This document shows positions 23,762 to 47,412 of a stretch of DNA of 64,000 nucleotides, piece by piece. Numbering within the stretch: position 1 is the first letter of the stretch; every line of letters starts with the position of its first letter. The notes under the pieces are model-generated. The model saw nothing but the letters and a program-made list of their open reading frames with translations. It was not told where the DNA came from and did not search any database. The DNA is from Longimicrobiales bacterium. Its GTDB lineage: Bacteria; Gemmatimonadota; Gemmatimonadetes; Longimicrobiales; Gaopeijiaceae. Where the stretch lies: positions 3,136,001 through 3,200,000 of the forward strand of contig OZ242008.1 of the NCBI GenBank assembly GCA_965204735.1, in the 5' to 3' direction. A program made the position numbers and the translations under genes.

Positions 23762-25810
23762 CTACCTCGACCCCCCGAACGAGACCTTGCCCCCCACGTA
23801 CACGCCGCGCCCAGGCGCCGGGAAGCCCTGCGCTTCCTCGTACTCGGCGCCCAGCAGGTTCTCGGCGCGGATCGTCAGCACGAACGCCGGCCCGGGACCG
23901 CCTCCGCCGAACACCCGCACGTTGGCGGCTGCGTCCAGCACGGTGTAGGCGGGCAGCACGACGGCGACGGCGGGCCACGTCGCGAAGTCCCGGTCCGCCC
24001 GTTCCCCGATTCGACGCGCCGCCAGATCCACCGTCGCCCGGTCCCCTACGGGAAGAAAGACGCCGGCTGCGACGGTGTGCGTCGGGCGCCGAGGGAGGGG
24101 CTGCCCTTCGACGAACGCGGCCCCGTGTCCCTCGTCGAACCCGGCGTCCCGCACCTCCGTGTCCAGCCACGTGTACGACGCGTTCAGCCGCACCGGCCCC
24201 GCATCGACTTGCGCCTCCGCCTCCGCGCCCCGGCTCCGGGCCTCGGCCACGTTGTAGTAGTTGGGGCCGCCCGCGACCGGCGGCGAGAAGGTGTACTGGA
24301 TCAGGTTCCTGTAGCTCTGCCAGAAGCCGGTCAGGGACATCTCGACCCGACCTTTCCCGAACGACTGCTCCACGCCGCCCTCGACTCCCGTGGACCGCTC
24401 CGGCTCCAACTCCGGGTTGCCTATTGCAAAGCCCGACGCAAAGGACTCGAAGAAGGTGGGCTCCTTGATTCCAGTGCCGAGGGAGACCCGCAGCAGGGTC
24501 CCGGACGGCTGCAGACGCCAAGCTGCTCCCGCGCTCCACGTCGCCGCCGTCCCAAAGCGCTCGTTGTCCTCCAGCCGCGCCCCGGCGTTCCATGCCAGCT
24601 CCCGCCGACGCTGCGGTCCGACTCTCCTCGGCGTCCCTTCCTGCTGCCCCTGCCCCAGAACCGCTGCGAGCTGCACGTAGACGGCCCGGTTCGAGCGCTC
24701 GTTCTCCGAGGCGCCGTGGCTGGTCCCGTACTGCGAGAGCGACCGGCTGAAGTCCCGAACCGACTGTCGCTCCAGCTCCACGCCCGCCGTCAGCGTCGAT
24801 TCGCCGGCGAAGCGCCAAGTCCCCCTAGCGTCAGCCCTGGCCCGCCGCGCGTCGTTCAAGCTCTTGAAGCCGAAGAAGCCCAGCGTGTCGGCCGGTCCGT
24901 CGGACGCGTCGTCGGTTCCCCCGTCGGATTCGTGGACGGACAGTGCAAGGCGGGTCTCGAAGGCGTCGGTCCAGCGCCGCCCGGCGTCGAGCGCCACGGC
25001 CAGCGCGTCCCCGAAGGCGAAGGCGTTGCGGTCCACCAGCCGGCCCGAGCCGTCGGTCGGGTAGTGGAAGCGGTGGTCTTCGTAGCGAACCGACAGGCTC
25101 GCGTCGGTGCGGAGGTCAGGTTGGACATGGACTCGCCCGGTGGCCGTGGTCAGGCGATGGACGTTGTTGAAGGGGAGGATTCCGTCGGCGTCGTTGCGTC
25201 CCAGGGAGAAGGCGTAGGAGAGCAGCCCCGTGCCGCCGGAGACGCCGCCCTGCCACCTGCGGGCTCCAAAGCTGCCGGCCTGGAAGGACAGATCGGCGGT
25301 GGGCCGGCCCGCGCCCCGACGGGTCATGATGTGGATTACGCCGCTCACCGCGTCGGAGCCGTAGAGGGCGGACGCTGGTCCCCGGACGATCTCGATCCGC
25401 TCCACGTTGTCGGCGCCGACGGCCCCGAAGTCGAAGCGTCCGCCGGGCTCGTTGACGGGCACTCCATCCAGCAGGACCTGCACGTGGTCCGACTCGCCTC
25501 CGCGCAGGAAGACGGAAGTCGTGGCGCCGAAGGAGCCGTTGCGGACCACTGCAAGCCCGGCAACCTGCCGAAGCGCGTCGGCGACGTACTCGATTCCGGC
25601 CTGCTCCAGCGCCTCTCCGTCGACGACCGTGACGTGGGACGCCACCGTCCACTCGGGCGCCGGCCGTCGGTGCGCGGTGACCACGAGTCCCTCCAGCGGA
25701 ACCGGCTGGTCCTGGGCTTCGAGGGAGCCGGCCGCCGGAGTGGGCGACGGCACGGCCAGGAGGGCAGCCAATAAGGCGACCGGGAAAGGAACGTGGGCGA
25801 TGCGTCTCAT
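23762..25810 (-). CDS. btuB: TonB-dependent cobalamin receptor
   Basis: Plug motifs VFLRGG..VLLDGVP, ERIEIVRGPASALYGSDAVSGVI; GNPELEPE; ENLL..YEE..GFPAPGR; cobalamin riboswitch directly upstream. Confidence 0.85.
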   Translation of the reverse strand: MRRIAHVPFPVALLAALLAVPSPTPAAGSLEAQDQPVPLEGLVVTAHRRPAPEWTVASHVTVVDGEALEQAGIEYVADALRQVAGLAVVRNGSFGATTSVFLRGGESDHVQVLLDGVPVNEPGGRFDFGAVGADNVERIEIVRGPASALYGSDAVSGVIHIMTRRGAGRPTADLSFQAGSFGARRWQGGVSGGTGLLSYAFSLGRNDADGILPFNNVHRLTTATGRVHVQPDLRTDASLSVRYEDHRFHYPTDGSGRLVDRNAFAFGDALAVALDAGRRWTDAFETRLALSVHESDGGTDDASDGPADTLGFFGFKSLNDARRARADARGTWRFAGESTLTAGVELERQSVRDFSRSLSQYGTSHGASENERSNRAVYVQLAAVLGQGQQEGTPRRVGPQRRRELAWNAGARLEDNERFGTAATWSAGAAWRLQPSGTLLRVSLGTGIKEPTFFESFASGFAIGNPELEPERSTGVEGGVEQSFGKGRVEMSLTGFWQSYRNLIQYTFSPPVAGGPNYYNVAEARSRGAEAEAQVDAGPVRLNASYTWLDTEVRDAGFDEGHGAAFVEGQPLPRRPTHTVAAGVFLPVGDRATVDLAARRIGERADRDFATWPAVAVVLPAYTVLDAAANVRVFGGGGPGPAFVLTIRAENLLGAEYEEAQGFPAPGRGVYVGGKVSFGGSR

Positions 25811-25911: not shown

Positions 25912-26090
25912 GGAGCACGTCTCCTGGCTTCGAGGTCGTTCCGCTCGCCTTCCCAGGACCCGTCGCGGAGTCCCAGTGGCATGTCGAACGGTCGGTATTC
26001 CGGGGTGTTGCCCGGACCTCTTCACAGTGGCGGGGCCGCGCCGGCTTCGCACCGGCTTCCGTGAGCCCCCTCGGCCTTGTCGGTTTGTGG
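25912..26090 (-). ncRNA. Cobalamin (B12) riboswitch
   Basis: Minus strand reads GGAAGCCGGTGCGAAGCCGGCGCGGCCCCGCCACTGT...GCCACTGGG...CTGGGAAGGC...AAGCCAGGAGAC (B12 box). Boundaries approximate. Confidence 0.92.
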
Positions 26091-26132
26091 GGGGAATGTG
26101 GCGGAGAGCACTCGCGGGTGCAAGACCCCGCC

Positions 26133-26207
26133 CAGCTGGGCATCGAGGTGATCCTGGCGAACTCGCCACAGGCGAAGGGCTGGGTCGAGCGGGCGTTTCG
26201 GGCGAAC
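26133..26207 (+). pseudogene. ISNCY/IS1202-like transposase scar
   Basis: Translates QLGIEVILANSPQAKGWVERAF, matching the LGI..I.A.SPQAKGRVER motif of these transposases. Confidence 0.6.
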
Positions 26208-26384
26208 AGGCCCATCCAGACATTCGGGAGTCCCATTCCGCCATTTGAGCGCTGGGCTCGCCCTGCGACAGTTCTTGGGACGCAACCCGTCAGCTCCCTC
26301 CACAGCCAGCCGGTGGACCTTGCCGCCACCGCTGCCGGCCGGGAGGCGCTCGTTCCCGAACCACGCTTCCTCCGAGCAACGTCC

Positions 26385-26971
26385 ATGGCAACCGACAACC
26401 CGCGAGGCCGCACTCCCGACCGCGAGTCGAGCGGTCCTCCCAACCCGGCGATCCGCCAGTCGAAAGACAAGAGCGCCAAGCTCTTCTACGGCGACAAGCG
26501 GATGGTCGCCGAGTTCCTGGCCAAGCACGTCTTCGGCAAGATCATCCCCGCCGACGTCGCCGCCCACATCGACCTCGACGGGCTCCAGCCGGGGCCGACC
26601 GAGCACGTCGACCCCAAGCTGCGCACCTTGCGCCACGCCGATCTCGTTTGGCGGGCGCCGTTTCGCGACTCTTGGCCGTGGACGGCACCGACGCGGCTCG
26701 AAGACCTGCTGGCGGACGAGGCGAAGGCGTCCCTGCCTTCGCGCTGGGCCACCAGTCGGTGCTGGTGTCGGAGTCGGGGGAAGCGGAGGAGCTGGAGCAT
26801 GTAACAACGGCGCGCGAGGCGGCACTGAAGTTGCGCTACGCGGCGGATGGCGCCGGAGGAGGTCGTGGCGCAACTGGAGCACTTGGACGACCTGGCGGGT
26901 CCGGTCGTCGAGACGTGGTGAGCGAAGGAGCGACGGGAGATACTCCGCAAGGGGCAGGAAGAGGGCCGCCA
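26385..26971 (+). pseudogene. Rpn/YhgA-like nuclease, lineage A, internally deleted and truncated
   Basis: Near-identical to 31913..33019 but lacks the FEFQS block, has a frameshift and a TGG>TGA stop, and has no C-terminus. Confidence 0.9.
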
Positions 26972-27205
26972 AGCACGATCTTGCCGAAGTTCAAGTTGGC
27001 TTCCATGCGCTCGTGGCAGTCTGCTGCTTGGTCCGCCGGGAAGACGCGACCGCCGTTTGGTTCCGCGCCAAGTACGGTCCATCCCGTGGGCGCCGCCACG
27101 GCCACGGTCTCGTGGACGACCACCTTCTCCGCATACCCCCCTCCGCCTGGAGACGACCCGCAGGACTTCCGGCCCTCCGAAATCGGAGATGACGACAGCG
27201 CGCAT
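26972..27205 (-). pseudogene. Quinone oxidoreductase relic (multiply deleted copy of 28474..29526)
   Basis: Keeps MRAVVISDFGGPEVLRV start, GGYAEKVVVHE and HERMEANLNFGKIVL pieces joined by deletions. Confidence 0.9.
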
Positions 27206-27454
27206 GGTGCGAACGATGGGGGCGTTGGGCGACGATCGCAGCGAGGGCAGCCAGCTGCTGGAGAACCGGAGTTCCTGCGGTCAGCGTGCACTGGAGCCTC
27301 CGCATTCGGGCGTGCAAGCGAAATAGGCCGATCCAGCTATCCAAACGCCCATTTCCCGGGTGCATACTGCTTCTGGACCGGCCATTCCCCGGCCCCGGAG
27401 CGCCCTCCCCCGGCCTCCGCGAACCCGCGAACCCCGCGCTCAAGGAGGCCCCCG

Positions 27455-28477
27455 TTGCCCGACTCCCCCATCCACAACCTCCGCTCCCCGCGCCGCAAGC
27501 ACGACGAAGTCTACAAGTTCTTCTTCTCCCAGACCCCCACCATCGCCGAAGTCCTCGAAGACTACGTCGCCCCCGACTGCGTCGACCAACTCGACCTCGC
27601 CACGCCGCGCAAGCTCACGCCCGAGCGCGTCGGCTCCCAGCTCGCCCGCCGACAGGCCGACATGCTCTGGCGCATCGACTTCCGCCACCAGCCCGGCTTC
27701 ATGGTCCTGCTCCTCGAATTCCAGTCCCGGATCGACCCATCCATGGGCGCCCGCATCCTGGGCTACGTGGCCGACACCTACGAGGACCTGATCCGCGAGA
27801 AGCAGCCCGGCGGCGACCCCCGCCTGCCCCCCGTCGTCGCCTGCGTCGTCTACAACGGCCGCCGCCGGTGGCACGCGCCCCTCGACATGGCCGAGCTGAT
27901 CTCGCCTACGCTGGCGCAGCTCCGGGACCGCTCGGTCCAGTTGCCCTACCAGGTGCTTGACATGCGGGCGCCGCCCAGGCGAAGCTTGCGGAAGCGGCGC
28001 ATCCTGACTTGGTTGCGGGAACTCGAGCGGGAAGGCGGCACGGTGGAGAAGGTCCGAGCCGTGCTGGGCGAGGTGTTGGAGGCGTACCCGGGTCCCGAGC
28101 ACGCTCGGGTCGCCGAGGCGTTCAAGCTGTGGACGGTGGGCGCGGCCCGAAGGTGGGGCGGCTCGAAAGAGGAACTGTCGAAGATCACCACTTTGTCGGA
28201 GGCGAGAGAGATGTACACGCTGATCGAAGAAGAGATGGCAAGGTTGCGGGACGAAGGCCGCCGGAGGGGCCGCCGGGAGGGCCGCCGGGAGGGCCGCCAG
28301 GAGGGATCCAGGACCCTCTTGGAGCACCTGGTGGCCAAGAAGTTCGGCGCGGCCGCGGCCGTGCAGCTGTCGGGCCTGATCGGTGGCCTGGACGGACGCG
28401 ACGAGCTGGACGCGGCGGCGGATGCCGTCATCGAGTGCGACTCGATCGCGGAGCTGCTGGCCCGACTCGCGAACTAG
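27455..28477 (+). CDS. Rpn/YhgA-like PD-(D/E)XK nuclease, lineage B, intact
   Basis: AAGGAGG then TTG at 27455; HDEVYK, RQADMLW, LLLEFQS, LPPVVACVVYNG..W, EGRREG repeats. Confidence 0.88.
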   Translation: MPDSPIHNLRSPRRKHDEVYKFFFSQTPTIAEVLEDYVAPDCVDQLDLATPRKLTPERVGSQLARRQADMLWRIDFRHQPGFMVLLLEFQSRIDPSMGARILGYVADTYEDLIREKQPGGDPRLPPVVACVVYNGRRRWHAPLDMAELISPTLAQLRDRSVQLPYQVLDMRAPPRRSLRKRRILTWLRELEREGGTVEKVRAVLGEVLEAYPGPEHARVAEAFKLWTVGAARRWGGSKEELSKITTLSEAREMYTLIEEEMARLRDEGRRRGRREGRREGRQEGSRTLLEHLVAKKFGAAAAVQLSGLIGGLDGRDELDAAADAVIECDSIAELLARLAN

Positions 28478-29526
28478 CGAGCCGCGGCACCTCGCGACGG
28501 CGACCGTCGGGACGGCGTTTGATTTCCTGCCCCGAGTGGGCGCTGGGGCGTCCCCCACTCCAGCACGATCTTGCCGAAGTTCAAGTTGGCTTCCATGCGC
28601 TCGTGGGAGTCTGCTGCTTGGTCCGCCGGGAAGACGCCGTCCACGACGGGCGCGAGCGAGCCGTCGGCGAAGCCGGGCAGGACGCACCGCTCGAAGTCGC
28701 GGGCGAGAGCGGCCTTCTCCGCCACCGGACGCGCCCGGAGCACCGTGCCCAGCAGCCGGGCCCGGCGAACCATGAGTGCCCGCAGGTCGATTCCGCCGCG
28801 AGCCCCTCCGGGCACCCCCACCACGACATGTCGGCCTCCGGTGGCGACCACCGCTTGGTTCCGCGCCAAGTACGGTCCTCCCACCAGGTCCAGGATCACG
28901 TCCGCGCCTCGCGCGTCCGTCGCCTCCTTGACGGCTTGGTGCCACTCGCCGTCCCCGTGCAACGCCAGGTCGAGCCCCATCTTGACCGCCTTGTCCAGCT
29001 TGGCCTGCGTGCGCGACGTGCCGATCACGCGAACTCCGGCCCGTCGCGCCAGCTGAAGCGCGGCGGTCCCGACGCCGCTGCCCACGGCGTGGATCAGCAA
29101 CGTCTCGCCCGGCGTCAGTCCCGCTTGGCGAAACACGGCGTCGTACGCGGTCATGTAGACCTCCGGGATCGCCCCGGCCCGCAGCGCGTCCATCCCCGTG
29201 GGCGCCGCCACGGCCACGGTCTCGTGGACGACCACCTTCTCCGCATACCCCCCTCCCGCCACGATCCCCATGACGTGCTGGCCGAGCCGCCACCGGGCCG
29301 CACCTGGGCCGAGCGCGTGAACCGTCCCGGCAAACTCCAGCCCCGGCACCTCCGACTCGCCGGGCGGAGCCGGGTAGAGCCCCCGTCGCTGGAGCAGGTC
29401 CGCCCGGTTGACTCCCGACGCCGCCACGCGCACCACGATCTCGCCGGCGCCCGGCACGGGATCGGGCCTGGAGGCGACCCGCAGGACTTCCGGCCCTCCG
29501 AAGTCGGAGATGACGACAGCGCGCAT
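28474..29526 (-). CDS. NAD(P)H:quinone oxidoreductase, PIG3 family
   Basis: GVNRADLLQRRGLYP, PGLE, HAVGSGVGTA, DVILDLVGG, GTVLRAR, NFGKIVL. Confidence 0.92.
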   Translation of the reverse strand: MRAVVISDFGGPEVLRVASRPDPVPGAGEIVVRVAASGVNRADLLQRRGLYPAPPGESEVPGLEFAGTVHALGPGAARWRLGQHVMGIVAGGGYAEKVVVHETVAVAAPTGMDALRAGAIPEVYMTAYDAVFRQAGLTPGETLLIHAVGSGVGTAALQLARRAGVRVIGTSRTQAKLDKAVKMGLDLALHGDGEWHQAVKEATDARGADVILDLVGGPYLARNQAVVATGGRHVVVGVPGGARGGIDLRALMVRRARLLGTVLRARPVAEKAALARDFERCVLPGFADGSLAPVVDGVFPADQAADSHERMEANLNFGKIVLEWGTPQRPLGAGNQTPSRRSPSRGAAAR

Positions 29527-29869
29527 GGTGCGAACGATGGGGCGAAAGGGAAGGGTCCGCCACCGAAGCGGCGGCGCGGGCTCCTTGGGGTCCGGAGGGG
29601 GCGGGCGACGATCGCAGCGAGGGCGGTCGGCTGCTGGGGAACCGGAGTTCCTGCGGGCGTGCACTGGAGCTTCCGCATTCAGGCGTGCATGGCAAGTTGG
29701 GCGACGACGAAGGGAAGTAGCAGCCCGTGGTCCGCTTCGAGGCCGAGCGGGGCCGGCCAGAAGCAAGCGAAATAGGCCGATCCAGCTATCCAAACGCCCA
29801 TTTCCCGGGTGCATACTGCTTCTGGATCGGCCATTCCCCGGCCCCGGAGCGCCCTCCCCCGGCCTCCGC

Positions 29870-30560
29870 CGCTACGTCGCCGACACCTACGAGGACCTGA
29901 TCCGAGAAGCAACCCGGCGGCCACCACCGCCTGCCCCCCGTCGTCGCCTGCGTCGTCCACAACGGCCCCACCGGTGGCACGCCCCCCTCGACATCGCCCA
30001 CCTGATCTCGCCTACGCTGCCCCAGCTCCAGGACCGCTCGGTCCGGCCGCCGTACCATGTGTTTGACATGCGGGCGCGGCCCAGGCGAAGCTTGCGGAAG
30101 CGGCGCATCCTGACCTGGTTGCGGGAACTCGAGCGGGAAGGCGGCACGGTGGAGAAGGTCTGGGCCGTGCTGGACGAGGTGTTGGAGGCGTACCCGGGTC
30201 CCGAGCACGCTCGGATCCCGGAGGCGTTCGCGCTGTGGACGGTGGGCGCGGCCCGAAGGTGGGGGGCTCGAAAGAAGAACTGTCGAAGATCACCACTTTG
30301 TCGGAGGCGAGAGAGATGTACACGCTGATCGAAGAAGAGGTGGCAAGGTTGCGGGACGAAGGCCGCCGGAGGGGCCGCCGGGAGGGCCATCGGGAGGGAT
30401 CCAGAACCGCCTGGTGGCCAAGAAGTTCGGCGCGGACGCGGCTGGGCAGTTGTCGGGCCTGATCGATGGCCTGGACGGACGCGACGAGCTGGACGCGGCG
30501 GCGGACGCCGTCATCGAGTGCGACACGGTCGCGGAGCTGCTGGCCCGACTCGCGAACTAG
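29870..30560 (+). pseudogene. Rpn lineage B second copy, 5'-deleted and frameshifted
   Basis: Matches about 27762..28477; RBS, start and EFQS are deleted; several frameshifts. Confidence 0.9.
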
Positions 30561-30605
30561 CGAGCCGCGGCACCTCGCGACGGCGGGGGTTGGGCTACCG
30601 CGCCG

Positions 30606-31515
30606 GTGCTCGGTCCAGTTGCCGTACCATGTGCTTGACATGCGGGCCGCGCCCAGGCGAAACTTGCGGAAGCGGCGCATCCTGACTTGGTTGCGGGAAC
30701 TCGAGATCACCACTTTGTCGGAGGCGAGAGAGATGTACACGCTGATCGAAGAAGAGATGGCAAGGTTGCGGGACGAAGGCCACCGGAGGGGCCGCCGGGA
30801 GGGATCCAGGACCCTCTTGGAGCGCCAAGTGGCCAAGAAGTTCAGCGCGGACGCGGCTGGCCAGCTGTCGGGCCTGACGCGGCTGGAAGACCTGCTGGCG
30901 GACGAGGCGAAGGCGTTCCTGCCCTTCGCGCTGGGCCACTAGTCGGTGCTGGTGTCGGAGGCGGGGGAAGCGAAGGAGCTGAAGCGCGGGGCGACAGCGT
31001 ACGGGGTGCCGCTTTGGACAGCGCGCGAGGCGTCGCTGAAGTTGCGCTACCCGGCAGATGGCGCCGAGTTTCGGGAGGCGGTTGCGGTGCTGAGGTCGCT
31101 GCTCCCTCCCGACAGCGTGGCAAGGGAGGCGTTGCTGGCGTGGGTACGCTGGTCGATGCTCGAGGAAGGAGCAAAGGAGGAGGTCGTGGCGCAACTGGAG
31201 CACCTGGACGACCTGGCAGGTCCGATCGTCGAGACTTGGTGGGCGAAGGAGCGGCGGGAGACGCTCCGCAGGGGGTATGAAGAGGGCCGGCGGGAAGGCC
31301 ATCGAGAGGGCCGTCAGGAAGGCCGTCGAGAGGGCCATCGGGAAGCGAGGTACCGGCTGGAGTGCCAAGTGGCCAAGAAGTTCGGCGTGGACGCGGCCGT
31401 GCAGCTGTTGGGCCTGATCGGTGGCCTGGACGGACGTGACGAGCTGGACGCGGCGGCGGACGCCGTCATCGAGTGCGACACGGTCGCGGAGTTGCGGACC
31501 CGACTCGCGAACTAG
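30606..31515 (+). pseudogene. Chimeric Rpn relic: lineage B 3' fragment fused in frame to lineage A 3' half
   Basis: ..MYTLIEEE..QLSGL joined to TRLEDLLADE at about 30876; CAG>TAG at 30940; the remainder is open to 31515. Confidence 0.85.
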
Positions 31516-31912
31516 CCAGCCGCGGCACCTCGCGACGGCGGGGGCTGGGCTCGCCGACTGCGCGAGCGGCGAGGAACTTCTGGTGCACGCGGCGAGGGGC
31601 GGAACGCCGGAGACGGGCCCGGCCCCCAGCCCACCGAGCCGTAGGCGGCCGCCGCGCCTTGGGCAGCGGCGCCCCTCGCTAACCTCGCGGCGGCCACTTC
31701 CCGCGATCTTGGCCAGTCTGCCCGCGGAAGCCGATCGCGTCCCATTCGGACATTCGGGAGTCCCATTCCGCCATTTGAGCACTGGGCTCGCAGTGCGACA
31801 GTTCTAGGGACGCGACCCGTCAGCTCCCTCCGCAGCCAGCCGTGGGCCTTGCCGCCACCGCTGCCGGCCGAGAGGCGCTCGTTCCCGAACCACGCTTCCT
31901 CCGAGCAACGTC

Positions 31913-33019
31913 ATGGCAACCGGCAACCATCGAGGCCGCACTCCCGACCGCGAGCCGAGCGGTCCTCCCAACCCGGCAATCCGCGAGCCGCACGACAAGA
32001 GCGCCAAGCTCTTCTACGGCGACAAGCGGATGGTCGCCGAGTTCCTGGCCAAGCACGTCTTCGGCAAGATCATCCCCGCCGACGTCGCCGCCGACATCGA
32101 CCTCGACGGGCTCCAGCCGGGGCCGACCGAGCACGTCGACCCCAAGCTGCGCACCTTGCGCCACGCCGACCTCGTTTGGCGGGCGCCGTTTCGCGACTCT
32201 TGGTTCTACATCGTCCTCCTCTTCGAATTCCAGTCGACGTCCGACTGGCGGATGGCGGTGCGGATCCTGCTCGAGACCGCGCTGGTCTACGACTACATGA
32301 GCAGGGGCAAAGAGGCGACCAAGGCGCACCAGCTGCCGCCGGTGCTGCCGATCGTCGTGCATGTGGGGACGGAGCCGTGGACGGCACCGACGCGGCTCGA
32401 AGACCTGCTGGCGGACGAGGCGAAGGCGTTCCTGCCCTTCGCGCTGGGCCACCAGTCGGTGCTGGTGTCGGAGTCGGAGGAAGCGGAGGAGCTGGAGCAT
32501 GTAACGACGGCGCGCGAGGCGGCGCTGAAGTTGCGCTACGCGGCGGATGGCGCCGAGTTTCAGGAGGCGGTTGCGGCGCTGAGATCGCTGCTCCCTCCCG
32601 ACAGCGTGGCAAGGGAGGGGTTGCTGGCGTGGGTACGCAGCTCGATGCTCGACGAAGGAGCAAAGGAGGAGGTCGTGGCACAACTGGAGCACCTGGACGA
32701 CCTGGCAGGTCCGGTCGTCGAGACCTGGTGGGCGAAGGAGCGGCAGGAGACGCTCCGCAAGGGGCATGAAGAAGGCCGCCGGGAGGGCCGTCAGGAAGGC
32801 CGTCAGGAAGGCCGCCAAGAAGGCCGCCAGGAAGGCCGTCAGGAGGGATCCAGGACCCTCTTGGAGCGCCTGGTGACCAAGAAGTTCGGCGCGGACGCGG
32901 CTGGGCAGTTGTCGGGCCTGATCGGTGGCCTGGACGGACGCGACGAGCTGGACGCGGCGGCGGATGCCGTCATCGAGTGCGACACGGTCGCGGAGCTGCT
33001 GGCCCGACTCGCGAACTAG
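31913..33019 (+). CDS. Rpn/YhgA-like PD-(D/E)XK nuclease, lineage A copy 1 (368 aa)
   Basis: PHDKSAK, RHADLVW, LLFEFQS, LPPVLPIVVH.G..PW, six R(R/Q)EG repeats. Confidence 0.9.
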   Translation: MATGNHRGRTPDREPSGPPNPAIREPHDKSAKLFYGDKRMVAEFLAKHVFGKIIPADVAADIDLDGLQPGPTEHVDPKLRTLRHADLVWRAPFRDSWFYIVLLFEFQSTSDWRMAVRILLETALVYDYMSRGKEATKAHQLPPVLPIVVHVGTEPWTAPTRLEDLLADEAKAFLPFALGHQSVLVSESEEAEELEHVTTAREAALKLRYAADGAEFQEAVAALRSLLPPDSVAREGLLAWVRSSMLDEGAKEEVVAQLEHLDDLAGPVVETWWAKERQETLRKGHEEGRREGRQEGRQEGRQEGRQEGRQEGSRTLLERLVTKKFGADAAGQLSGLIGGLDGRDELDAAADAVIECDTVAELLARLAN

Positions 33020-33568
33020 CGAGCCGCGGCACCTCGCGACGGCGGGGGGCGGGGCTCGCTGTGGTGCGCTTGGCGGAGCGGAAGTTCGGTCGGGAGACGG
33101 CGAAGGAGCTTGGCGTACTGCTGGAGACGGTCTCCGGTTCAGGGCGGCTCGCCGAGATCACCGATCTGATCATCGACGGCGCGCGCGGCGAGGTCTGGTG
33201 CACGCGGCGAGGGGCGGACGCCGGAGACGGGCCCGGCCCCCAGCCCACCGAGCCGTAGGCGGCCGCCGCGCCTTGGGCAGCGGCGCCCCTCGCTAACCTC
33301 GCGGCGGCCTAAGGCGGTAGAGCGCCTGTCACGCGACGTCGGGGCTGTCACTTCCCGCGATCTTGGGCCAGTCCGCCCGCGGAAGCCAAATCGCGTCCCA
33401 TCCGGACATCCGGAAGTCCCATTCCGCCATTTGAGCACTGGGCTCGCAGTGCGACAGTTCTTGGGAGACAACCCGTCAGCTCCCTCCGCAGCCAGCCGTG
33501 GACCTTGCCGCCACCGCTGCCGGCCGAGAGGCGCTCGTTCCCGACCACGCTTCCTCCGAGCAACGTCC

Positions 33569-34627
33569 ATGGCAACCGGCAACCATCGAGGCCGCACTCC
33601 CGACCGCGAGTCGAGCGGTCCTCCCAACCCGGCGATCCGCCAGCCGTACGACAAGAGCGCCAAGCTCTTCTACGGCGACAAGCGGATGGTCGCCGAGTTC
33701 CTGGCCAAGCACGTCTTCGGCAAGATCATCCCCGCCGACGTCGCCGCCGACATCGACCTCGACGGGCTCCAGCCGGGGCCGACCGAGCACGTCGACCCCA
33801 AGCTGCGCACCTTGCGCCACGCCGACCTCGTTTGGCGGGCGCCGTTTCGCGACTCTTGGTTCTACATCGTCCTCCTCTTCGAATTCCAGTCGACGTCCGA
33901 CTGGCGGATGGCGGTGCGGATCCTGCTCGAGACCGCGCTGGTCTACGACTACATGAGCAGGGGCAAAGAGGCGACCAAGGCGCACCAGCTGCCGCCGGTG
34001 CTGCCGATCGTCGTGCATGTGGGGACGGAGCCGTGGACGGCGCCGACGCGGCTCGAAGACCTGCTGGCGGACGAGGCGAAGGCGTTCCTGCCCTTCGCGC
34101 TGGGCCACCAGTCGGTGCTGGTGTCGGAGTCGGAGGAAGCGGAGGAGCTGGAGCATGTAACGACGGCGCGCGAGGCGGCGCTGAAGTTGCGCTACGCGGC
34201 GGATGGCGCCGAGTTTCAGGAGGCGGTTGCGGCACTGAGATCGCTGCTCCCTCCCGACAGCGTGGCAAGGGAGGGGTTGCTGGCGTGGGTACGCAGCACG
34301 ATGCTCGACGAAGGAGCAAAGGAGGAAGTCGTGGCACAACTGGAGCACCTGGACGACTTGGCGGGTCCGGTCGTCGAGACGTGGTGGGCGAAGGAGCGAC
34401 GGGAGATACTCCGCAAGGGGCAGGAAGAAGGCCGCCAAGAGGGCCGACAGGAGGGATCCAGGACCCTCTTGGAGCGCCAAGTGGCCAAGAAGTTCGGCGC
34501 GGACGCGGCTGGGCAGTTGTCGGGCCTGATCGGTGGCCTGGACGGACGCGACGAGCTGGACGCGGCGGCGGACGCCGTCATCGAGTGCGACACGGTCGCG
34601 GAGCTGCTGGCCCGACTCGCGAACTAG
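33569..34627 (+). CDS. Rpn/YhgA-like nuclease, lineage A copy 2 (352 aa)
   Basis: Near-identical to copy 1; two RQEG repeats. Confidence 0.9.
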   Translation: MATGNHRGRTPDRESSGPPNPAIRQPYDKSAKLFYGDKRMVAEFLAKHVFGKIIPADVAADIDLDGLQPGPTEHVDPKLRTLRHADLVWRAPFRDSWFYIVLLFEFQSTSDWRMAVRILLETALVYDYMSRGKEATKAHQLPPVLPIVVHVGTEPWTAPTRLEDLLADEAKAFLPFALGHQSVLVSESEEAEELEHVTTAREAALKLRYAADGAEFQEAVAALRSLLPPDSVAREGLLAWVRSTMLDEGAKEEVVAQLEHLDDLAGPVVETWWAKERREILRKGQEEGRQEGRQEGSRTLLERQVAKKFGADAAGQLSGLIGGLDGRDELDAAADAVIECDTVAELLARLAN

Positions 34628-35134
34628 CGAGCCGCGGCACCTCGCGACGGCGGGGGGCGGGGCTCGCTGTGGTGCGCTTGGCGGAGCGGAAGTTCGGTCG
34701 GGAGACGGCGAAGGAGCTTGGCGTACTGCTGGAGACGGTCTCCGGTTCAGGGCGGCTCGCCGAGATCACCGATCTGATCATCGACGGCGCGTGCGGCGAG
34801 GTCTGGTGCACGCGGCGAGGGGCGGACGCCGGAGACGGGCCCGGCCCCCAGCCCACCGAGCCGTAGGCGGCCGCCGCGCCTTGGGCAGCGGCGCCCCTCG
34901 CTAACCTCGCGGCGGCCACTTCCCGCGATCTTGGCCAGTCTGCCCGCGGAAGCCGATCGCGTCCCATTCGGACATTCGGGAGTCCCATTCCGCCATTTGA
35001 GCACTGGGCTCGCAGTGCGACAGTTCTTGGGAGACAACCCGTCAGCTCCCTCCGCAGCCAGCCGTGGACCTTGCCGCCACCGCTGCCGGCCGAGAGGCGC
35101 TCGTTCCCGACCACGCTTCCTCCGAGCAACGTCC

Positions 35135-36181
35135 ATGGCAACCGGCAACCATCGAGGCCGCACTCCCGACCGCGAGTCGAGCGGTCCTCCCAACCCGGCG
35201 ATCCGCCAGCCGTACGACAAGAGCGCCAAGCTCTTCTACGGCGACAAGCGGATGGTCGCCGAGTTCCTGGCCAAGCACGTCTTCGGCAAGATCATCCCCG
35301 CCGACGTCGCCGCCGACATCGACCTCGACGGGCTCCAGCCGGGGCCGACCGAGCACGTCGACCCCAAGCTGCGCACCTTGCGCCACGCCGACCTCGTTTG
35401 GCGGGCGCCGTTTCGCGACTCTTGGTTCTACATCGTCCTCCTCTTCGAATTCCAGTCGACGTCCGACTGGCGGATGGCGGTGCGGATCCTGCTCGAGACC
35501 GCGCTGGTCTACGACTACATGAGCAGGGGCAAAGAGGCGACCAAGGCGCACCAGCTGCCGCCGGTGCTGCCGATCGTCGTGCATGTGGGGACGGAGCCGT
35601 GGACGGCGCCGACGCGGCTCGAAGACCTGCTGGCGGACGAGGCGAAGGCGTTCCTGCCCTTCGCGCTGGGCCACCAGTCGGTGCTGGTGTCGGAGTCGGA
35701 GGAAGCGGAGGAGCTGGAGCATGTAACGACGGCGCGCGAGGCGGCGCTGAAGTTGCGCTACGCGGCGGATGGCGCCGAGTTTCAGGAGGCGGTTGCGGCA
35801 CTGAGATCGCTGCTCCCTCCCGACAGCGTGGCAAGGGAGGGGTTGCTGGCGTGGGTACGCAGCACGATGCTCGACGAAGGAGCAAAGGAGGAAGTCGTGG
35901 CACAACTGGAGCACCTGGACGACTTGGCGGGTCCGGTCGTCGAGACGTGGTGGGCGAAGGAGCGACGGGAGATACTCCGCAAGGGGCAGGAAGAAGGCCG
36001 CCAAGAGGGATCCAGGACCCTCTTGGAGCGCCAAGTGGCCAAGAAGTTCGGCGCGGACGCGGCTGGGCAGTTGTCGGGCCTGATCGGTGGCCTGGACGGA
36101 CGCGACGAGCTGGACGCGGCGGCGGACGCCGTCATCGAGTGCGACACGGTCGCGGAGCTGCTGGCCCGACTCGCGAACTAG
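35135..36181 (+). CDS. Rpn/YhgA-like nuclease, lineage A copy 3 (348 aa)
   Basis: Appears identical to copy 2 except for one RQEG repeat. Confidence 0.9.
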   Translation: MATGNHRGRTPDRESSGPPNPAIRQPYDKSAKLFYGDKRMVAEFLAKHVFGKIIPADVAADIDLDGLQPGPTEHVDPKLRTLRHADLVWRAPFRDSWFYIVLLFEFQSTSDWRMAVRILLETALVYDYMSRGKEATKAHQLPPVLPIVVHVGTEPWTAPTRLEDLLADEAKAFLPFALGHQSVLVSESEEAEELEHVTTAREAALKLRYAADGAEFQEAVAALRSLLPPDSVAREGLLAWVRSTMLDEGAKEEVVAQLEHLDDLAGPVVETWWAKERREILRKGQEEGRQEGSRTLLERQVAKKFGADAAGQLSGLIGGLDGRDELDAAADAVIECDTVAELLARLAN

Positions 36182-36297
36182 CGAGCCGCGGCACCTCGCG
36201 ACGGCGGGGGGCGGGTTCGCCTGCTAAGAGGTGGGCCCGCTCGTCGCGCTGTTCGGCTACCATATCCTGCACGTTGCGCCCGTTGCTGGAACGAGCC

Positions 36298-36581
36298 ACC
36301 TCCCGACAGCGTGGCAAGGGAAGGGTTGCTGGCGTGGGTACGCAGCTCGATGCTCGACGAAGGAGCAAGGAGGAGGTCGTGGCGCAACTGGAGTACCTGG
36401 ACGATCTGGCGAGTCCGGTCGTCGAGACCTGGTGGGCGAGGGAGCGGCAGGAAACGCTCCGGCTGGGCGGTTGTCGGGCCTGATCGGCGGCCTGGACGGA
36501 CGCGACGAACTGGACGCGGCGGCGGACGCCGTCATCGAGTGCGACTCGGTCGCGGAACTGCTGGCCCGACTCGCGAACTAG
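36298..36581 (+). pseudogene. Rpn lineage A 3' fragment, deleted and frameshifted
   Basis: PDSVAREGLLAWVRS..VETWW..LSGLIGGLDGRDELDAAADAVIECDSVAELLARLAN split over frames. Confidence 0.85.
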
Positions 36582-36768: not shown

Positions 36769-37015
36769 CTCCCACCAGGTCCAGGATCACGTCCGCGCCT
36801 CGTGCGCCCGTCGCCTCCTTGACGGCTTGGTGCCGCGTGATCGGCACGTCGCGCACGCAGGCCAAGCTGAACAAGGCGGTCAAGATGGGCCCCGACCTGG
36901 CGTTGCAGGGGGACGGCGAGCGAACTCCGGCCCGTCGCGCCAGCTGAAGCCCGGCGGTCCCGACGCCGCTGCCCACGGCGTAGATCAGCAATGTCTCGCC
37001 CGGCGTCAGCCCGGC
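36769..37015 (-). pseudogene. Quinone oxidoreductase relic (middle part) with an internal 86-bp inversion
   Basis: Matches about 28879..29125; 36835..36920 is the reverse complement of about 28945..29030. Confidence 0.85.
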
Positions 37016-37439
37016 TTCCACGAACGACGGGCTCGCCGCAGGCGAGGGACGGGTCGAGCGCAGCTTCGGCACGGCACCTCGAACCGACGCTAGCTAGCCG
37101 GGACAACTACCGTGGTACGACACCAGTAGACGCGCTGCCAGTAGCCACAGCCACCAGTGTCAGCGGCCATCGAAAATTGCACACTCTTGGCCGTCGAAAA
37201 TTGCACACTCTTGGGGACCCGAACGTAGGGAGCGGAGCGACCGGAGTCGGGTCCCCAAGAGTGCGTGGCCGGGCGGGCTCCAACCCCGGCGCGTGGTGAC
37301 GGGACGGACCCAGTCGCGCGGTCTCGGTCGGTCATGCCGACGGCGCCGGGGGCCGGAGTTCCTGCGGCGTGCAGGGCCAGCATGATCGTCCACGCCGCGA
37401 CGGCGTTCATGGTGGCGAGGCCCTGGCCCCATCTCTTGG

Positions 37440-38252
37440 TCACGATCCCCTCCCTCCGTCTCCGGAACCGTCGTCCGACGGCTGACCCTCCAGCGCCTTG
37501 GCCAGCTCGGCCGCATGGTGTCGCGTCCGCCAGCTGTTGCCTCGGATGTTGACGATGTGGCACCGGTGCAGCAGTCGGTCCAGCAGCGCCGCCGCCATCA
37601 CCTCGTCGCCCAGGATCCGTCCCCACTCCTCGAACCCCTTGTTCGACGTGACCACCGTCGAGGCGTGCTCGTAGCGCCGGGCGATCAGCTGGAAGAACAG
37701 CGTCGCCCCGCTCCGGCTCACCGGCAAGTAGCCGATCTCGTCGACCACCAGCAGCGACGGGTGCGTCAGCGTCTTGAGCCGCTGCTTGAGGCGGCCGGCC
37801 GCCTGAGCTTCCTCCAGCGACTCCACCAGGTCGGAGAGTGTGCCGTAGTAGATCCGCCGACCGCCCTGCGCCGCCGCGACGGCCAAGCTGATCGCCAGGT
37901 GCGTCTTGCCCACGCCCGGCGGGCCCAGGAACACGACGTTCTCCTTGCGCGCCACGAACCCCAGTTCGTGCAGCGACGCGATCTGCTTCCGCTTCACCGA
38001 CGGCTGGAACGCGAAGTCGTACTCCTCGAGCGTCTTGACCGACGGCAGACGGCTCGACCGCATCGCCGTGGCCAGCCGACGGCTGTTGCGCAACGCGATC
38101 TGCGCCGCCAGCAGCTCCTCGATCGCTTCGGCCGCCGTCGCAGCGCCGCCGTCCACGCGGGCCAGCACGTCGGCAAGAGCTTCGAGCGCGCCCGGCATCT
38201 TCAAGTCCGCCAGCATCTCCGCGATCCGGTCTCTGCGCGACACCGGCTTCAC
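37440..38252 (-). CDS. istB: IS21 helper ATPase IstB
   Basis: KTLEEYDFAFQP, GPPGVGKTHLA, LLVVDEIGY, TSNKGFEEWG, LDRLLH..I.GNSWR. Confidence 0.92.
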   Translation of the reverse strand: MKPVSRRDRIAEMLADLKMPGALEALADVLARVDGGAATAAEAIEELLAAQIALRNSRRLATAMRSSRLPSVKTLEEYDFAFQPSVKRKQIASLHELGFVARKENVVFLGPPGVGKTHLAISLAVAAAQGGRRIYYGTLSDLVESLEEAQAAGRLKQRLKTLTHPSLLVVDEIGYLPVSRSGATLFFQLIARRYEHASTVVTSNKGFEEWGRILGDEVMAAALLDRLLHRCHIVNIRGNSWRTRHHAAELAKALEGQPSDDGSGDGGRGS

Positions 38253-38777
38253 GACGCCGCCTCCGCGATCTTGGCGTACTCGGCCAGCGACCGCCGCTCC
38301 ACCGCCACGACGGGACCGCCCGACTCCGGCGCCGCCTGCCGAGCCGCGACCGGGACGACCGAGCGGTAGGGCCGCTGCGCCAACGGCAGGAGCCGGCCCC
38401 GCTCGTCCTCGAAGCGGACCACGGGACGCTGCTTCAACGTGCCCGTGAACGCGAACGTTGGCCACCGTGTCCAGCCAGCGGCGTGCACGAGCGTTCAGAT
38501 CGTCGTCGGAGACGAACTCCCGACCGTAGAAGAAGCTGCTGCGGACGTAGCTGATCGGCCGCTCGACCTTCCCCTTCGTCTTCGCCCGACCCGCCCTGCA
38601 CGCCCAGATGCGGAAGCCCCAGTGCGCGCTGAACCGCAGGAACTCCCGGTTCTCCAGCAGCCGACCGCCCTCGGCGCGTCGGTCGCTCACGCCGACGCGG
38701 CGGGCGATCTCCGCCTTCGGCACCCCCTGGTCGAGGTAATGTCGCAGCAACACTCGCTTCTCCCTCCTGGGCCGCAC
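38249..38777 (-). pseudogene. istA: IS21 transposase IstA with large internal deletion and frameshift
   Basis: HTH KAEIARRVGVS joined directly to FLRFSAHWGF..KTKGKVER..ANVRVHG; the C-terminal VERRSLAEY lies in another frame. Confidence 0.85.
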
Positions 38778-39198: not shown

Positions 39199-42100
39199 CT
39201 AGTTGCGAGTGAGCACTATCGTCTCGAAAGAGTCGGCGTCGCCCCTGCCTTTCACCAACCGGATGCCGTTGATCCGATTGATATCCCCAGTAGTGGCGAG
39301 TCCTACAGTGTTTGTCCGATTAATCGCTACCCCAGCCAGATCGACAAACACTTGGTACCAACCCTCCTCGAGTCCTTCGAAGCGGTACTCGCCGGCGGCG
39401 GTGGTTGTCGCGGTCTTCCGCTCAAAGGTGTTGTCGTAGCCGGAGTCGCAGGTGTCGATGGGGAAGGTAGCGTTGGCCTGCGCAAGAGAAACCAAGCCAC
39501 ACTTTTGCAGGAACACCCTTTGGTTAGCGACGTTCGAGTGAGTGTTGTCTTGGAGACTGTCGCGCTCTGTGATCTTGCCCGTGAGGACACCGTCCGTGAA
39601 CACCACAACGAAATCCGCATCCGTCTGTGGAAGGCCCACGTCTCCGGTGGGGTTGCTGCCATATCTCCAGTGAGGCAGCGAGCCAGCACTACCGTCACCA
39701 CTCGTTATCAACCTTCCGGTCGGAAGCGCTGTCGTTCTCAAGGCCGGAGTGCGGTGAACGGGTCTGGTGTTCTTTGCGACCAACTTGTAGCTGGTCGTAC
39801 TAGTTCCCTCAACGGCGTAGTGGCCTTCTGGAAGGCCCGTGAAGGAGAACCTGCCCGTAGCATCTGACTTGGCAGTCGCCACCCTCGTCCCCACGGTGTC
39901 TGTGGCACTCTTCAGCCTCAGAAGCGTCAACGTGGCGCCCTGAACAGTCTCGCGGGGATGAACCGTACCATCGCCCCCATTCCCAGAGACCACCGAATCG
40001 GCGTTCTGGTCGTTAGCCACTGTCCCTGATATCATCGCCTTCTGATAGGTGACCGTAGCATCTACCGAGTCGACGCTACCAGCTGCCACGTCAGTATGCA
40101 GGACCGTCACCGTGTCGGAAACTCCCCTTGAGAACCGACCGTTCCATGCGGAGTTCGACTTGATGGTGACTTCGTACGTGCCACCCTCAAGGCCCGTGAA
40201 CACGTATGCACCAGTCGTGCAGCTGTCGTCGAGCCGCTCGTTGCCGTCTACGTCGCCACAAGCCGCGCGATTGTTGACCTTCGCGTCCTTGCTCTTCCCG
40301 TCGCCAAAAGTAAGCATAGGCCTGAGAGTGAGCACAACGGAATCGCGACCAAAATTCGTCAAGGGGCCGCCGAGGTCACCGTAATTCGCAGTCGAAACTG
40401 TACCCCTCACCTGTCCGTTGGTGTATCCGTAAGCAAAGGTCGAGCAGGCGTCACGGCTGGCGCTGCCGGCCAGGGGACAGATCGACACGGATGGACCCGT
40501 CCCACCAGCAGTACCAAAAGCACCGCTCGAGTGAGCGCCCCGGCTTGCTTGTTCCCTGGTAGTCCCCAGGAAGGTGTCTACCTCGTTGGCCCCGTATATC
40601 TTCTTGTTCGAGTCCGACGTAGTCACCTTCACGAGTAAGTCTAGAGCCGTCGGCAAGTTGGTGAAGATCACTAGGCCAGCGTCGGTAGTGCCGTCAGCCT
40701 TCGGGCTCGCGGCACCCGTCCTGGTCGCGATCCCCGGATAATTCCAGTTCTGCGGAGTACCGTGCCTGTCCCTAGTCTGCAACTGGAGCGTGATGTCTCC
40801 CACCACGTTCGCATGCGGCCGCACGTCGCCATCAACGATGTTCCGGTCGTAGCCCACCACTTGAGTACGCTCGTGGTGAACGCCGAGGATCAGCGTCTGG
40901 GTCGTCCACTTGACCCGCATCACGCCGAGATCCGCGGTGTCGCTCGGCAACGTTACGCCGTCGTACTCGTAGACCAAGAACGGTATATCCGTCGTGGACG
41001 TCGCCCCACCCACCTTCTTCGTGCTTTCCATCGAAGCGATGGCGGAGGGCTCCGGGGTTCCCATGAACCTCTCTCCCATCGCCCTCGCCTGGGTGCCGGA
41101 CAAGCGGATGTAGTACGTCACCGGCAGACCACCGGCGGGGATGTCCGAGAACGTGGACTTGCCCGCCTTGTTGGAAACCTTCGCGCTCTGGAAGCCGTCG
41201 TTCGCCAAGCTCGTTCGAACCTCGGACGCCCAGCCTTCCAGGAAGTCGTCTCCGCCGATGTCGGTTTCGACGTTCTTGACCCAGAACTGGAAGGTAGCCC
41301 GTTGGTTGATGACCTGGACGGCTTCGGCGGCCGCGGTCTCCAACCTTCTGGGCGAGTAGGAGACCTCCAAGATCTCGTTGGCAGACACTGACAAGTCGTC
41401 GTGCGGGAGCTGGGCCACCTTGGCGAACACAACGTGGTCTATTCTGCCGCCTGGTCCGGTGTCGGACGCACGCGGGAACATGACCTTCGCCATCCCAGTC
41501 GAGTCGGTCACGGCCATCTTGCCGAGCTGTTGCCTTTCGGCCTCCGCCGCCTGGTATGTGGGGTAGAAGTCGATCCCGACGCCCGGGAGCATCGCGCCAG
41601 TCTTGGCATCCTTGCCGTCTTCGCCATTGCCCATCATAGCCTGCATCGTGATGGTCTGCGTGACGATCCTGAAGGGCAGGTTCTGGACTACGGTCGCACC
41701 AGGCTCGAGAGCTACGAGAGAGGTTGTGCCGGTGTACATGACGCGCGAGTCCACATCGGCGGAATCCAAATGCTCACCAGCTACGAGAACCTGATAGCTA
41801 CCGGCCTTCAGGTTTTCGAATGTGTACATACCATCGGCGTTGGTCAGCGCGGTTTTCACTTCGTTCACGCCCGGTCCAGAAAGCGTGACCTGCAAGCCAC
41901 GGAGCGCGTAGGTGTCCTCGTCGCCCGCGTCCAGCTGGCCGTTTTGGGGGTTCGCGTCAAAGAATGCGTGTCCCGTAACGGTGGCGGTCGCCACGTGCGC
42001 GCCCGCGAAGTTCGAGATCGCCGCTTGGTCGTCGGCCAGCACGACCGTCTTCGACGCCGTGTCGAAGATGTACGCGGCCGCATCCCACCCGGAGATCGTC

Positions 42101-43110: not shown

Positions 43111-43297
43111 TTCCATTCCTGTGATGGATGGGTTCTGTTCTCGCCCGGAGCCCTTCCGGCCTCGCGCCGCGAAGGTCGGGCAAGCGGGTAATCTATGGTG
43201 ATCGCCTCCAGAGCGCCAGCCGGTGGGCCGGCGCTTCCGTGGGAGACGGTTGTCGGGGGTTTTCAAGGACCCGGCTCGCCGGGAGCCTGGAAGATGA

Positions 43298-43313
43298 AGC
43301 AAGAGTGGTGCCA
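43298..43313 (-). promoter_or_regulatory. Sigma54 (-24/-12) promoter
   Basis: TGGCAC-CACTC-TTGCT on the minus strand, exact consensus spacing, about 190 bp upstream of the lipoprotein ATG. Confidence 0.75.
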
Positions 43314-43413
43314 TTCTTCTGGATTCTGCGTATTCCTTTGTTCTTCAAGGGTTTTGCGGATGCGGGCGAGCACGGTTCGACCAGCCTTCGGGGACGGAAA
43401 ACCGACTCGAGGG

Positions 43414-46565: not shown

Positions 46566-47290
46566 CTACGACCGCTCCGCTTCGCTGTTGCCGGCCACGG
46601 CCAGGAACTCGTCGGCGGTGTCGCACTCCACGACCGCGTCCCCGACCCGCGCCAGCTGCTCGGCGCTCATGGAGCGCACCCGCGCCTCCAGCCGGCGCGC
46701 CGTCTGGGCCCCGAACCGCCGCGAAGCCAGACGCAGCAGCAAGACCGCTCGGCCCTCCGCACGCCCCTGCTCGAGCCCCCGTTCGAGTCCCTGCTCGAGC
46801 CCCCGCTGCCGGTGGCCCTCCGCCCACTCCGCATAGGTCTGGCCCATCTCTTTCTCCTCCTTCGGTTGGATGATCTGCTCCACGATGTCCTCACGTGCCT
46901 CTTCCGGCACCCCCACCACACGCAGCCGCTCGTCCGTCCAGTCCAGCGCCGCGACCCAGCCCAGCACGCTCTCCCTGGGAAGCAACCCTTGCGCCAGCGC
47001 CGACCGCAAGTCAAGCAGCCCGTAGCCGTGAGTGGTCGCCAAGCCGGCGACCGCCTGCGCCACGACCGGCGACGGCTCCTCCCTGCCGGCCAGCCCGGCC
47101 AGCGACGTCTCGGCCGTCCATGGCCTCGTGCCGGTGTAGACGACGAACGAGAGCACGAGGGGCATGGCGCCGTCGGGGTCGCGCTGGCGCTCGAGCGTGT
47201 GCAGCACCGTGTAGGCGGCCTCGGTGTAGCGCAGCGTCCTGAGGACCATGCCCGGATCGACGGAGGACTGGAACTCGAAGAGGAAGACGG
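46566..47290 (-). pseudogene. Rpn/YhgA-like nuclease lineage C, N-terminus missing, C-terminal ORF intact
   Basis: FLFEFQS, VVYTGTRPW, GLEQG repeats, RRFG..VGDAVVECDTADEFL; no upstream HD/AD block. Confidence 0.8.
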
Positions 47291-47412
47291 CGGATCGACC
47301 GTTCCCCCGAAGCTGGCCGGGACGGTCTCCGGCCCTGGTCCTCAGTGTCTCACCGAGGATGCGCCATTTCCATGGCTGGATGGGACAGATTTTTTTTTCG
47401 TCTCTCGCGGGC

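Follow-up and report, generated by a model that had tools for sequence, protein, structure and literature searches.

An expanding and contracting array of chimeric rpn nuclease genes in a Longimicrobiales genome, and a promoter box shared with DNA-uptake genes

The window analysed here is a stretch of 64,000 nt (contig OZ242008.1, positions 3,136,001 to 3,200,000) from a Longimicrobiales bacterium whose genome, G000, is a single contig of 4.14 Mb with 69% G+C. Its middle part holds an array of genes for Rpn (YhgA-like) nucleases. Four congeneric genomes, G000 to G003, were compared, and 37 other relatives were searched besides; the stretch is also present, with few differences, in a sponge metagenome (run X3). 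In the Rpn system of Zhong 2023 (10.1101/2023.05.02.539157, PMC10400941) a small antitoxin is translated from inside the rpn gene, and the number of a 4-residue repeat sets specificity; the corresponding predicted products are called RpnS, as in E. coli. The array comprises four intact rpn genes (B1, A1, A2 and A3) and five relics (R0, R1, R2, R3 and R4), all co-oriented. They are listed below, with what lies between them, in window positions; coordinates in the whole genome are marked G000.

26385..26970, + strand: R0, a lineage-A relic; a 171-bp deletion takes the EFQ catalytic motif, a second deletion removes 110 bp, and there is a stop in the predicted antitoxin frame
26972..27316, - strand: scraps of a quinone oxidoreductase-like gene (qor) and of IS21, multiply deleted, common to the sister rpnB locus at G000 2.17 Mb
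27455..28477, + strand: B1, an intact lineage-B Rpn of 340 residues with a TTG start; PF04754 E 6.7e-22, catalytic residues kept
28211..28477, + strand: predicted internal antitoxin RpnS of B1, 88 residues; GGAGG then ATG, by analogy with Zhong 2023
28474..29526, - strand: qor, intact (Pfam ADH_N/ADH_zinc_N)
29775..30560, + strand: R1, a lineage-B relic with an intact promoter box (44.7 bits); a 340-bp deletion takes the start and the catalytic region, and there are frameshifts
30608..31515, + strand: R2-R3, a B fragment joined to an A fragment, with an intact predicted orphan antitoxin of 109 residues at 31186-31515
31913..33019, + strand: A1, an intact chimeric Rpn with A nuclease, 6 extra 4-residue units and B tail; predicted RpnS at 32675-33019
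33049..33262, + strand: stranded X-type tail remnant after A1, 75% identical in nucleotides to G000 228709-228925 (translation VVRLAERKFG...)
33569..34627, + strand: A2, an intact chimeric Rpn with 2 extra units; predicted RpnS at 34331-34627
34657..34870, + strand: second stranded X-type tail, from alignment
35135..36181, + strand: A3, an intact chimeric Rpn equal to A2 minus one 12-bp unit; predicted RpnS at 35897-36181
36299..36581, + strand: R4, a 3' relic of an A/B chimera; an 82-bp deletion breaks the antitoxin frame

An earlier sequence-only reading of this DNA had counted four intact rpn genes (one B, three A), at least four relics and seven occurrences of the same 3' end. The intact genes were as described and the relics came to five, with deletion sizes of 82-340 bp. 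The shared end, CTCGCGAACTAG, is exact at 28477, 30560, 31515, 33019, 34627, 36181 and 36581, and just two further copies are found elsewhere in the genome, both at the sister locus about 1 Mb off. The hidden Markov model search suggested at that time placed Transposase_31 (PF04754) in all four intact genes (E 1e-18 to 7e-22; 68-78.5 bits, the Pfam cut-off being 21 bits); DUF4351 was matched under its own Pfam cut-off, and the TIGR01784 score likewise fell under its cut-off. Residues D11, D63, E82, Q84 and R94, which the accessible part of Kingston 2017 gives as needed in E. coli RpnA, are all aligned in A1, A2 and B1, and A3 equals A2 there. The earlier account had passed over the intact qor inside the array, which sits on the opposite strand surrounded by qor and IS21 scraps, as well as the stranded old tails and the promoter box.

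Sequence comparison shows that A1-A3 join a lineage-A nuclease to a lineage-B tail, with the old tail stranded downstream. A2 and B1 are 31.5% identical over 213 N-terminal positions and 89.5% over the 57-residue tail. Of the 47 full-length genes in the four genomes, 45 entered the trees, the other two lacking an anchor motif. The nuclease tree puts A1-A3 in the A clade (18 rows, support 100/99), the tail tree in the B clade (12 rows, support 100/99). Among the best 53 database matches the B tail occurs in the closest two alone (92% and 82%), and the X tail in 42 by pattern and 8 by eye, with 1 truncated. An X-tail remnant follows directly after the stop of A1 and of A2. This remnant, together with the discordance of the nuclease and tail trees, indicates that a B-type segment, reaching from the repeat to a point about 27 bp beyond the stop, was set before the old tail. 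In run X3 a 138-bp contig spans the A helix, the repeat and the B tail with 0 differences.

Each intact gene carries a predicted internal antitoxin. The sequence signal, a GGAGG followed by a GTG or ATG start, is present in 4/4 intact genes and also in relic R3. The internal-start search accepted M, V or L at the position; the homologous codon in 21 other lineage-A genes is ATG in 18 and GTG in 3, and GGAGG precedes it in 21/21. The internal start of the A genes lies about 20 codons upstream of the repeat, which equals or exceeds the upper limit of the 8-20 reported. The extra 4-residue units number 6 in A1, 2 in A2 and 1 in A3. In the predicted model of A2 (mean predicted local distance difference test score, pLDDT, 85.9) a long helix, 267-309, runs across the repeat and is followed by three short helices. 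Binding of RpnL by RpnS would be expected here by homology. A sequence search of the PDB gave no relevant match and Foldseek returned nothing at E <= 0.001, its leading rows being mostly nucleases; four distant relatives (24-35% identity) were found on viral contigs. At G000 2825030-2828918 an intact rpnB-type gene is followed by three 5'-truncated tandem copies that keep the tail part only, with varying repeat number, and these three are probably orphan antitoxins.

The array is an expanding and contracting rpn cluster. A2 and A3 show 0 mismatches in 1047 nt, their sole difference being one 12-bp unit, and A1 differs from A2 by 23 mismatches and four more repeat units. Contig depth, a rough guide, was 520-539 on the A core, 364 on the spacer and 185-190 on the single-copy contigs beside the array in run X1, which may be the source sample (ratios of about 2.8 for the A core and 1.9 for the spacer). 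The A core and single-copy depths were 38.9 and 39.6 in X3, and 38.4 and 33.8 in X9; depth in X8 was too low and uneven. By these ratios one strain would have three A copies, and two others a single copy each. Firmer than depth are the contig joints: one X9 contig is without R0, joining 26129 to 27029, and another joins the A helix to a different tail start. The long spacer with its stranded tail is uncovered in X3, X8 and X9, and no inference is drawn from absent cover; the joint across the long spacer derives from a shorter R3-type spacer. The duplication, deletion and exchange of 3' modules proposed by the sequence-only reading are thus borne out by the tree discordance, by the single-unit difference of A2 and A3 and by strain differences at read joints.

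An assembly artefact would account for A2 and A3 being equal save for 12 bp, and none of the listed contigs reaches across the whole array. Mis-assembly is nevertheless unlikely, since array-specific junctions recur in contigs from the runs of studies P2, P3 and P5 with 0-8 differences, relic and chimera junctions among them. The X1 depth ratios also speak against it, as do the tandem rpn copies found in G003 and G002, and we regard it as scarcely credible.

The qor gene has a history of its own. In 3/3 congeners it follows the block that ends at about 743 kb in G000, where G000 has an rpnB scrap; qor therefore moved together with rpn sequence. The sister locus at G000 2.17 Mb has three deletions in common with the scraps of the array. 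Deletion junctions show 0-4 bp of microhomology, with a mean of 1.9 over 17 rows against 0.8 by chance, or 1.4 over 13 by hand count after removing three locus-shared rows and one within the repeat. Ku is encoded in 5/5 genomes, among them one without rpn, so that the array deletions cannot be assigned to Rpn.

Many other rpn loci exist in the genus besides this array, and most of the genome's copies are singletons at scattered sites, which is new and departs from the earlier treatment of the locus as unique. PF04754 matches number 27 in G000, 11 in G001, 27 in G002 and 40 in G003, with zero in the genomes of the 37 other relatives. Of the synteny that had been proposed as a check, the local part failed, no congener having rpn beside qor or btuB, while rpn loci elsewhere were found in 4/4 congeners. 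Lineage C has ten full-length genes in G000, 93.5-97.9% identical and dispersed, with ragged ends. Five of the ten, each between conserved host genes, were tested for empty sites: all five sites are empty in G003 and 3/3 scorable ones in G001; in G002 an rpn gene occupies two of them, another two are empty and synteny is broken at the fifth. The two same-site genes of G002 are 66-67% identical to their G000 counterparts, no nearer than to other G000 copies, and 78.5% identical to each other, which would fit either repeated insertion at one gap or gene conversion within each genome. An rpn gene just downstream of lexA in G000 (1438875-1441297) is likewise present in G002, and the site is empty in G003.

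The five empty-site comparisons showed neither inverted repeats nor target duplication, and in place of the fixed ends of an insertion sequence the 11 lineage-C units have ragged ones. The motif CTAG was considered as an insertion target, several 3' ends abutting a CTAG at the stop of a convergent gene, and was rejected on the empty sites, which are without duplication. YhgA-like genes are annotated as ISNCY (NF007418), presumably under the label ISPlu15. The units here resemble such elements in being dispersed and in a weak profile match (E 1e-7 to 4e-3, far under the cut-off); they differ in that we saw neither terminal inverted repeats nor target duplications, nor ends at fixed positions.

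A box of about 25 bp, often after an A-tract and with a consensus close to GTCCCATCCAGCCATGGAAACGCCC, lies about 50-350 nt upstream of rpn genes in every lineage. The strict pattern matches 17, 12, 20 and 19 times in the four congeners and once in one of the 37 other genomes; read backwards, it gave zero matches. The genes that follow were named by Pfam/NCBIfam or from their translations. Apart from rpn, boxes precede recA, ssb, comM, pilB, comEA-pilT (followed by a pilC-like frame, named from translation), the cluster asparaginase-obgE-dprA, and a prepilin gene heading the pilin operon, with a secretin gene 6 kb on along the same strand. A matrix built from 18 competence-gene promoters and zero rpn promoters scored above the threshold of 14 bits at 22 of 26 rpn 5' ends in G000, where one shuffled genome gave an estimated 4 sites above 14 bits and none above 18. 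Among rpn starts of the other congeners the box was found at 8/8 (of 11 matches), 20/25 (of 27) and 28/39 (of 40), 56/72 in total, as against 0/73 on the opposite strand. Background was 21/1977 open reading frames, members included, or about 1% of genes. A -10-like hexamer stands at offset 12 in 31 of 39 strong genome matches, and a sigma-70 scan returned 0 sites. The box is kept in 11/11 lineage-C units despite their ragged ends. Its places in the array, scored with the competence-only matrix, are as follows.

26209..26254, + strand: degenerate tandem box before R0, 15.3 bits; A-unit homology begins here (alignment start 26211)
27326..27368, + strand: strong box and predicted -10 (CATACT) before B1, 44.7 bits
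31739..31784, + strand: degenerate tandem box before A1, 10.9 bits, under threshold
33395..33440, + strand: degenerate tandem box before A2, 20.0 bits
34961..35006, + strand: degenerate tandem box before A3, 10.9 bits, under threshold

At 14 bits or more B1, R1, A2 and R0 thus have the shared site, and A1 and A3 do not. Elsewhere in the window, a separate lineage-C rpn relic (46566..47410, - strand) has a strong box at 47386 (44.2 bits).

An SOS (LexA) box was considered and rejected. Taking approximate starts, no box stands before lexA, two uvrA genes, recN, ruvB or rpoB, with best scores of -2 to -13 bits for lexA, uvrA, recN and ruvB; recA and ssb do carry one. The box precedes recA and comM in 4/4 genomes of the genus, and visual inspection showed a weak form upstream of comM in about 10 of 21 other genomes without rpn, all below 13 bits, so that the box looks older than the rpn expansion. 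From its position we infer an activator site overlapping the -35 region, and from the genes that it precedes it appears to be a hitherto undescribed regulatory site of competence type in Longimicrobiales. Most rpn genes of the genus are then likely to be switched on during DNA uptake. In the open literature we found no paper linking Rpn to competence; subscription papers lay outside that search, and the Sxy-regulon tables of E. coli might include rpn. The accessible part of Bertels 2017 has the transposase-like yafM as induced, credited to Sinha 2009 (Sxy regulon of E. coli). Upstream of E. coli rpnA a search for a CRP-S site gave only one TCGCA half-site.

Two further kinds of boxed locus were noted in G000. 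Clusters at 1869372 and 907687, encoding a small cysteine-containing peptide or a C39 peptidase with an ABC transporter, are possibly competence-linked bacteriocin loci; unannotated coiled-coil and membrane proteins with strong boxes at 2383466, 1736797 and 3406208 are candidate new regulon members.

Our preferred reading, held tentatively and short of calling it probable, is that the array belongs to a selfish toxin-antitoxin family likely induced with natural competence. A competence activator would bind the box, so that the nuclease is made as DNA enters and is neutralised by the internal antitoxin. Were an rpn copy replaced by a neighbour's empty allele, the matching antitoxin would be lost just after the toxin was made and the cell would be harmed; the rpn gene would thereby resist curing by transformation. 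Nicks, together with incoming DNA from kin, could give rise to recombination for which one rpn copy is the anchor and which needs no long homology to finish; fresh insertions, tandem copies, ragged relics, swapped tails and the relocated qor may be its products. A changed repeat number or tail would give each copy an antitoxin specificity of its own. A broader proposal, which we consider doubtful, is that Rpn cassettes are transposase-free selfish elements on a host competence promoter, which land in new sites from kin DNA, kill cured cells and form incompatibility groups by change of repeat or tail; if true, the array would show all those steps at one locus.

The box evidence would fit equally well if the nucleases were a competence-timed defence, made with type IV pili and DNA uptake to destroy or abort phages and foreign DNA, with the array diversifying under phage pressure. 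Pili serve as phage receptors, and one rpn relic in the window lies behind a DUF4062/Fic-like gene. In E. coli, RpnP2 blocks some T-even phages, which also weighs against a purely selfish role, and rpn genes are enriched near defence genes (Zhong 2023). On the other side, PADLOC gave no match for the nuclease, the neighbours of the array are a btuB-like gene and a surface protein and not a defence island, and the dispersed copies tested sit between conserved host genes. Moreover, if the target is set by the nuclease domain, little breadth would be gained from ten near-identical nucleases. We think this explanation unlikely, though a serious one.

If the rpn genes instead served the host as a domesticated transformation helper, their nicks would aid the integration of poorly homologous DNA and the antitoxin would just limit damage. 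The accessible part of Kingston 2017 reports RecA-independent recombination raised by E. coli Rpn proteins, and the rpn genes are predicted to be co-regulated with comM, dprA and recA. A host function needs no 11-40 copies, though, and the copies are often destroyed and their sites differ among congeners; moreover, the 37 other relatives do without an rpn match, most of those tested having comM. A helper role is accordingly most improbable to us.

Several observations weigh against the selfish, competence-induced reading. The box is weak at A1 and A3 and modest at A2, the most amplified genes of the array, and at A1 and A3 it is duplicated and decayed. No box lies within 1.3 kb upstream of the comEC domain in G000, and comEC was not found in G001 (92% complete), yet 8/8 rpn genes there are boxed. 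Unrelated genes are also preceded by the box, namely asparaginase-obgE, trpS, feoB and the small-peptide or C39-peptidase clusters. The training sites of the matrix had been located with a pattern first drawn from rpn promoters, and the cross-test is in that respect not fully independent. The high identity among the copies could come from gene conversion of old insertions instead of recent spread, given that two of the five sites are occupied by rpn in G002. Lineage-C repeat counts (1, 3, 4, 4, 5, 6, 7, 9, 9 and 14) include 8 distinct values where about 7.3 are expected by hand calculation from uniform draws; over-dispersion of repeat counts is not supported, the spread being no greater than chance.

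The points on comEC, on the decayed boxes of A1 and A3 and on the unrelated genes would equally suit an antiphage accordion with no competence link, its box being a general stress or housekeeping promoter shared by chance. Against this, recA, ssb, comM, comEA-pilT, pilB and the pilin operon rank among the strongest non-rpn members, the box is missing before lexA, uvrA, recN and ruvB, and only about 1% of genes have it. We judge this explanation improbable.

In itself the array is of an already known kind. Zhong 2023 (PMC10400941) described orphan antitoxin genes, N/C fusions and arrays formed by tandem duplication, and showed antiphage activity of RpnP2 by experiment. Since tandem arrays, internal and orphan antitoxins and repeat variation have been published, the array is not the undescribed system that the sequence-only reading took it for. 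Like E. coli RpnL/RpnS, the genes have the PF04754 nuclease with its catalytic residues, an internal start before the 4-residue repeat helix, orphan antitoxins, tandem arrays, an N/C fusion and no insertion-sequence ends. They differ in that the tail has been swapped between lineages with 31.5% N-terminal identity, and in that most copies are dispersed singletons, most of them boxed, whereas the multiple rpn copies of Koonin 2023 (PMC10400984) appear to stem from tandem duplication. What is new in the array is the tail exchange among the A and B lineages, the single-repeat difference of A2 and A3, and the variation between strains. Toxic DNase and antiphage activity have been shown in the E. 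coli system.

The nearest precedent for the proposed regulation is toxTA of H. influenzae. According to the accessible part of that work, the toxin is under a competence promoter, an internal second signal favours the antitoxin, deletions removing the toxin are frequent, and the system is possibly selfish. However, toxTA is a single-copy, two-gene RelE/ParE-like operon under CRP-S/Sxy, and the rpn genes here are a gene-within-gene DNase family of 11-40 copies with a different, undescribed box. A conflict of DNA uptake with resident selfish DNA has likewise been proposed for mobile elements that oppose curing by transformation (review PMC12378983; Croucher 2016, PMC4774983); among the known cases are secreted DNases or competence repressors on prophages and plasmids, and in its accessible part the review does not contain the word 'Rpn'.

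The surroundings of the array were also inspected. To its left a cobalamin riboswitch (25917-26062, - strand) stands before a btuB-like TonB-dependent receptor gene (23762-25810, - strand), and to its right a 1371-residue repetitive SdrD_B/CarboxypepD surface protein is encoded at 39199-43314 (- strand). Scraps of a DDE transposase, which we take to be IS1202/ISNCY-like, mark both edges (26134-26201 and 37026-37075), and elsewhere G000 has 12 near-identical 1.86-kb elements with long target duplications. An IS21-type element at 37151-38696, internally deleted with istB intact, lies among qor scraps and has a 98% duplicate near G000 3.625 Mb; an 87-bp inversion (36834-36920) lies inside a qor scrap. 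Directly before the lineage-C relic, 47413-49239 (- strand) encodes a protein with DUF4062, HATPase_c_4 and a Fic-like C-terminus, with a GGGGCCAAGC tandem repeat near its end. The family of an AAA-ATPase gene at 9685-11262 has four tandem copies where qor ancestrally lay (G000 743478-749865), a second accordion-like locus, at which no competence box was found.

How Rpn proteins are activated, why there are dozens of copies per genome and how they move without a transposase are questions named as open by Zhong 2023 and Koonin 2023. The array suits tests of antitoxin specificity, A2 and A3 differing by one repeat, and A and B having a common tail on different nucleases. The competence-type box on most rpn genes of the genus offers one testable answer, induction during DNA uptake, which, if true, would join the results on RecA-independent recombination by Rpn with those on its toxin-antitoxin action.

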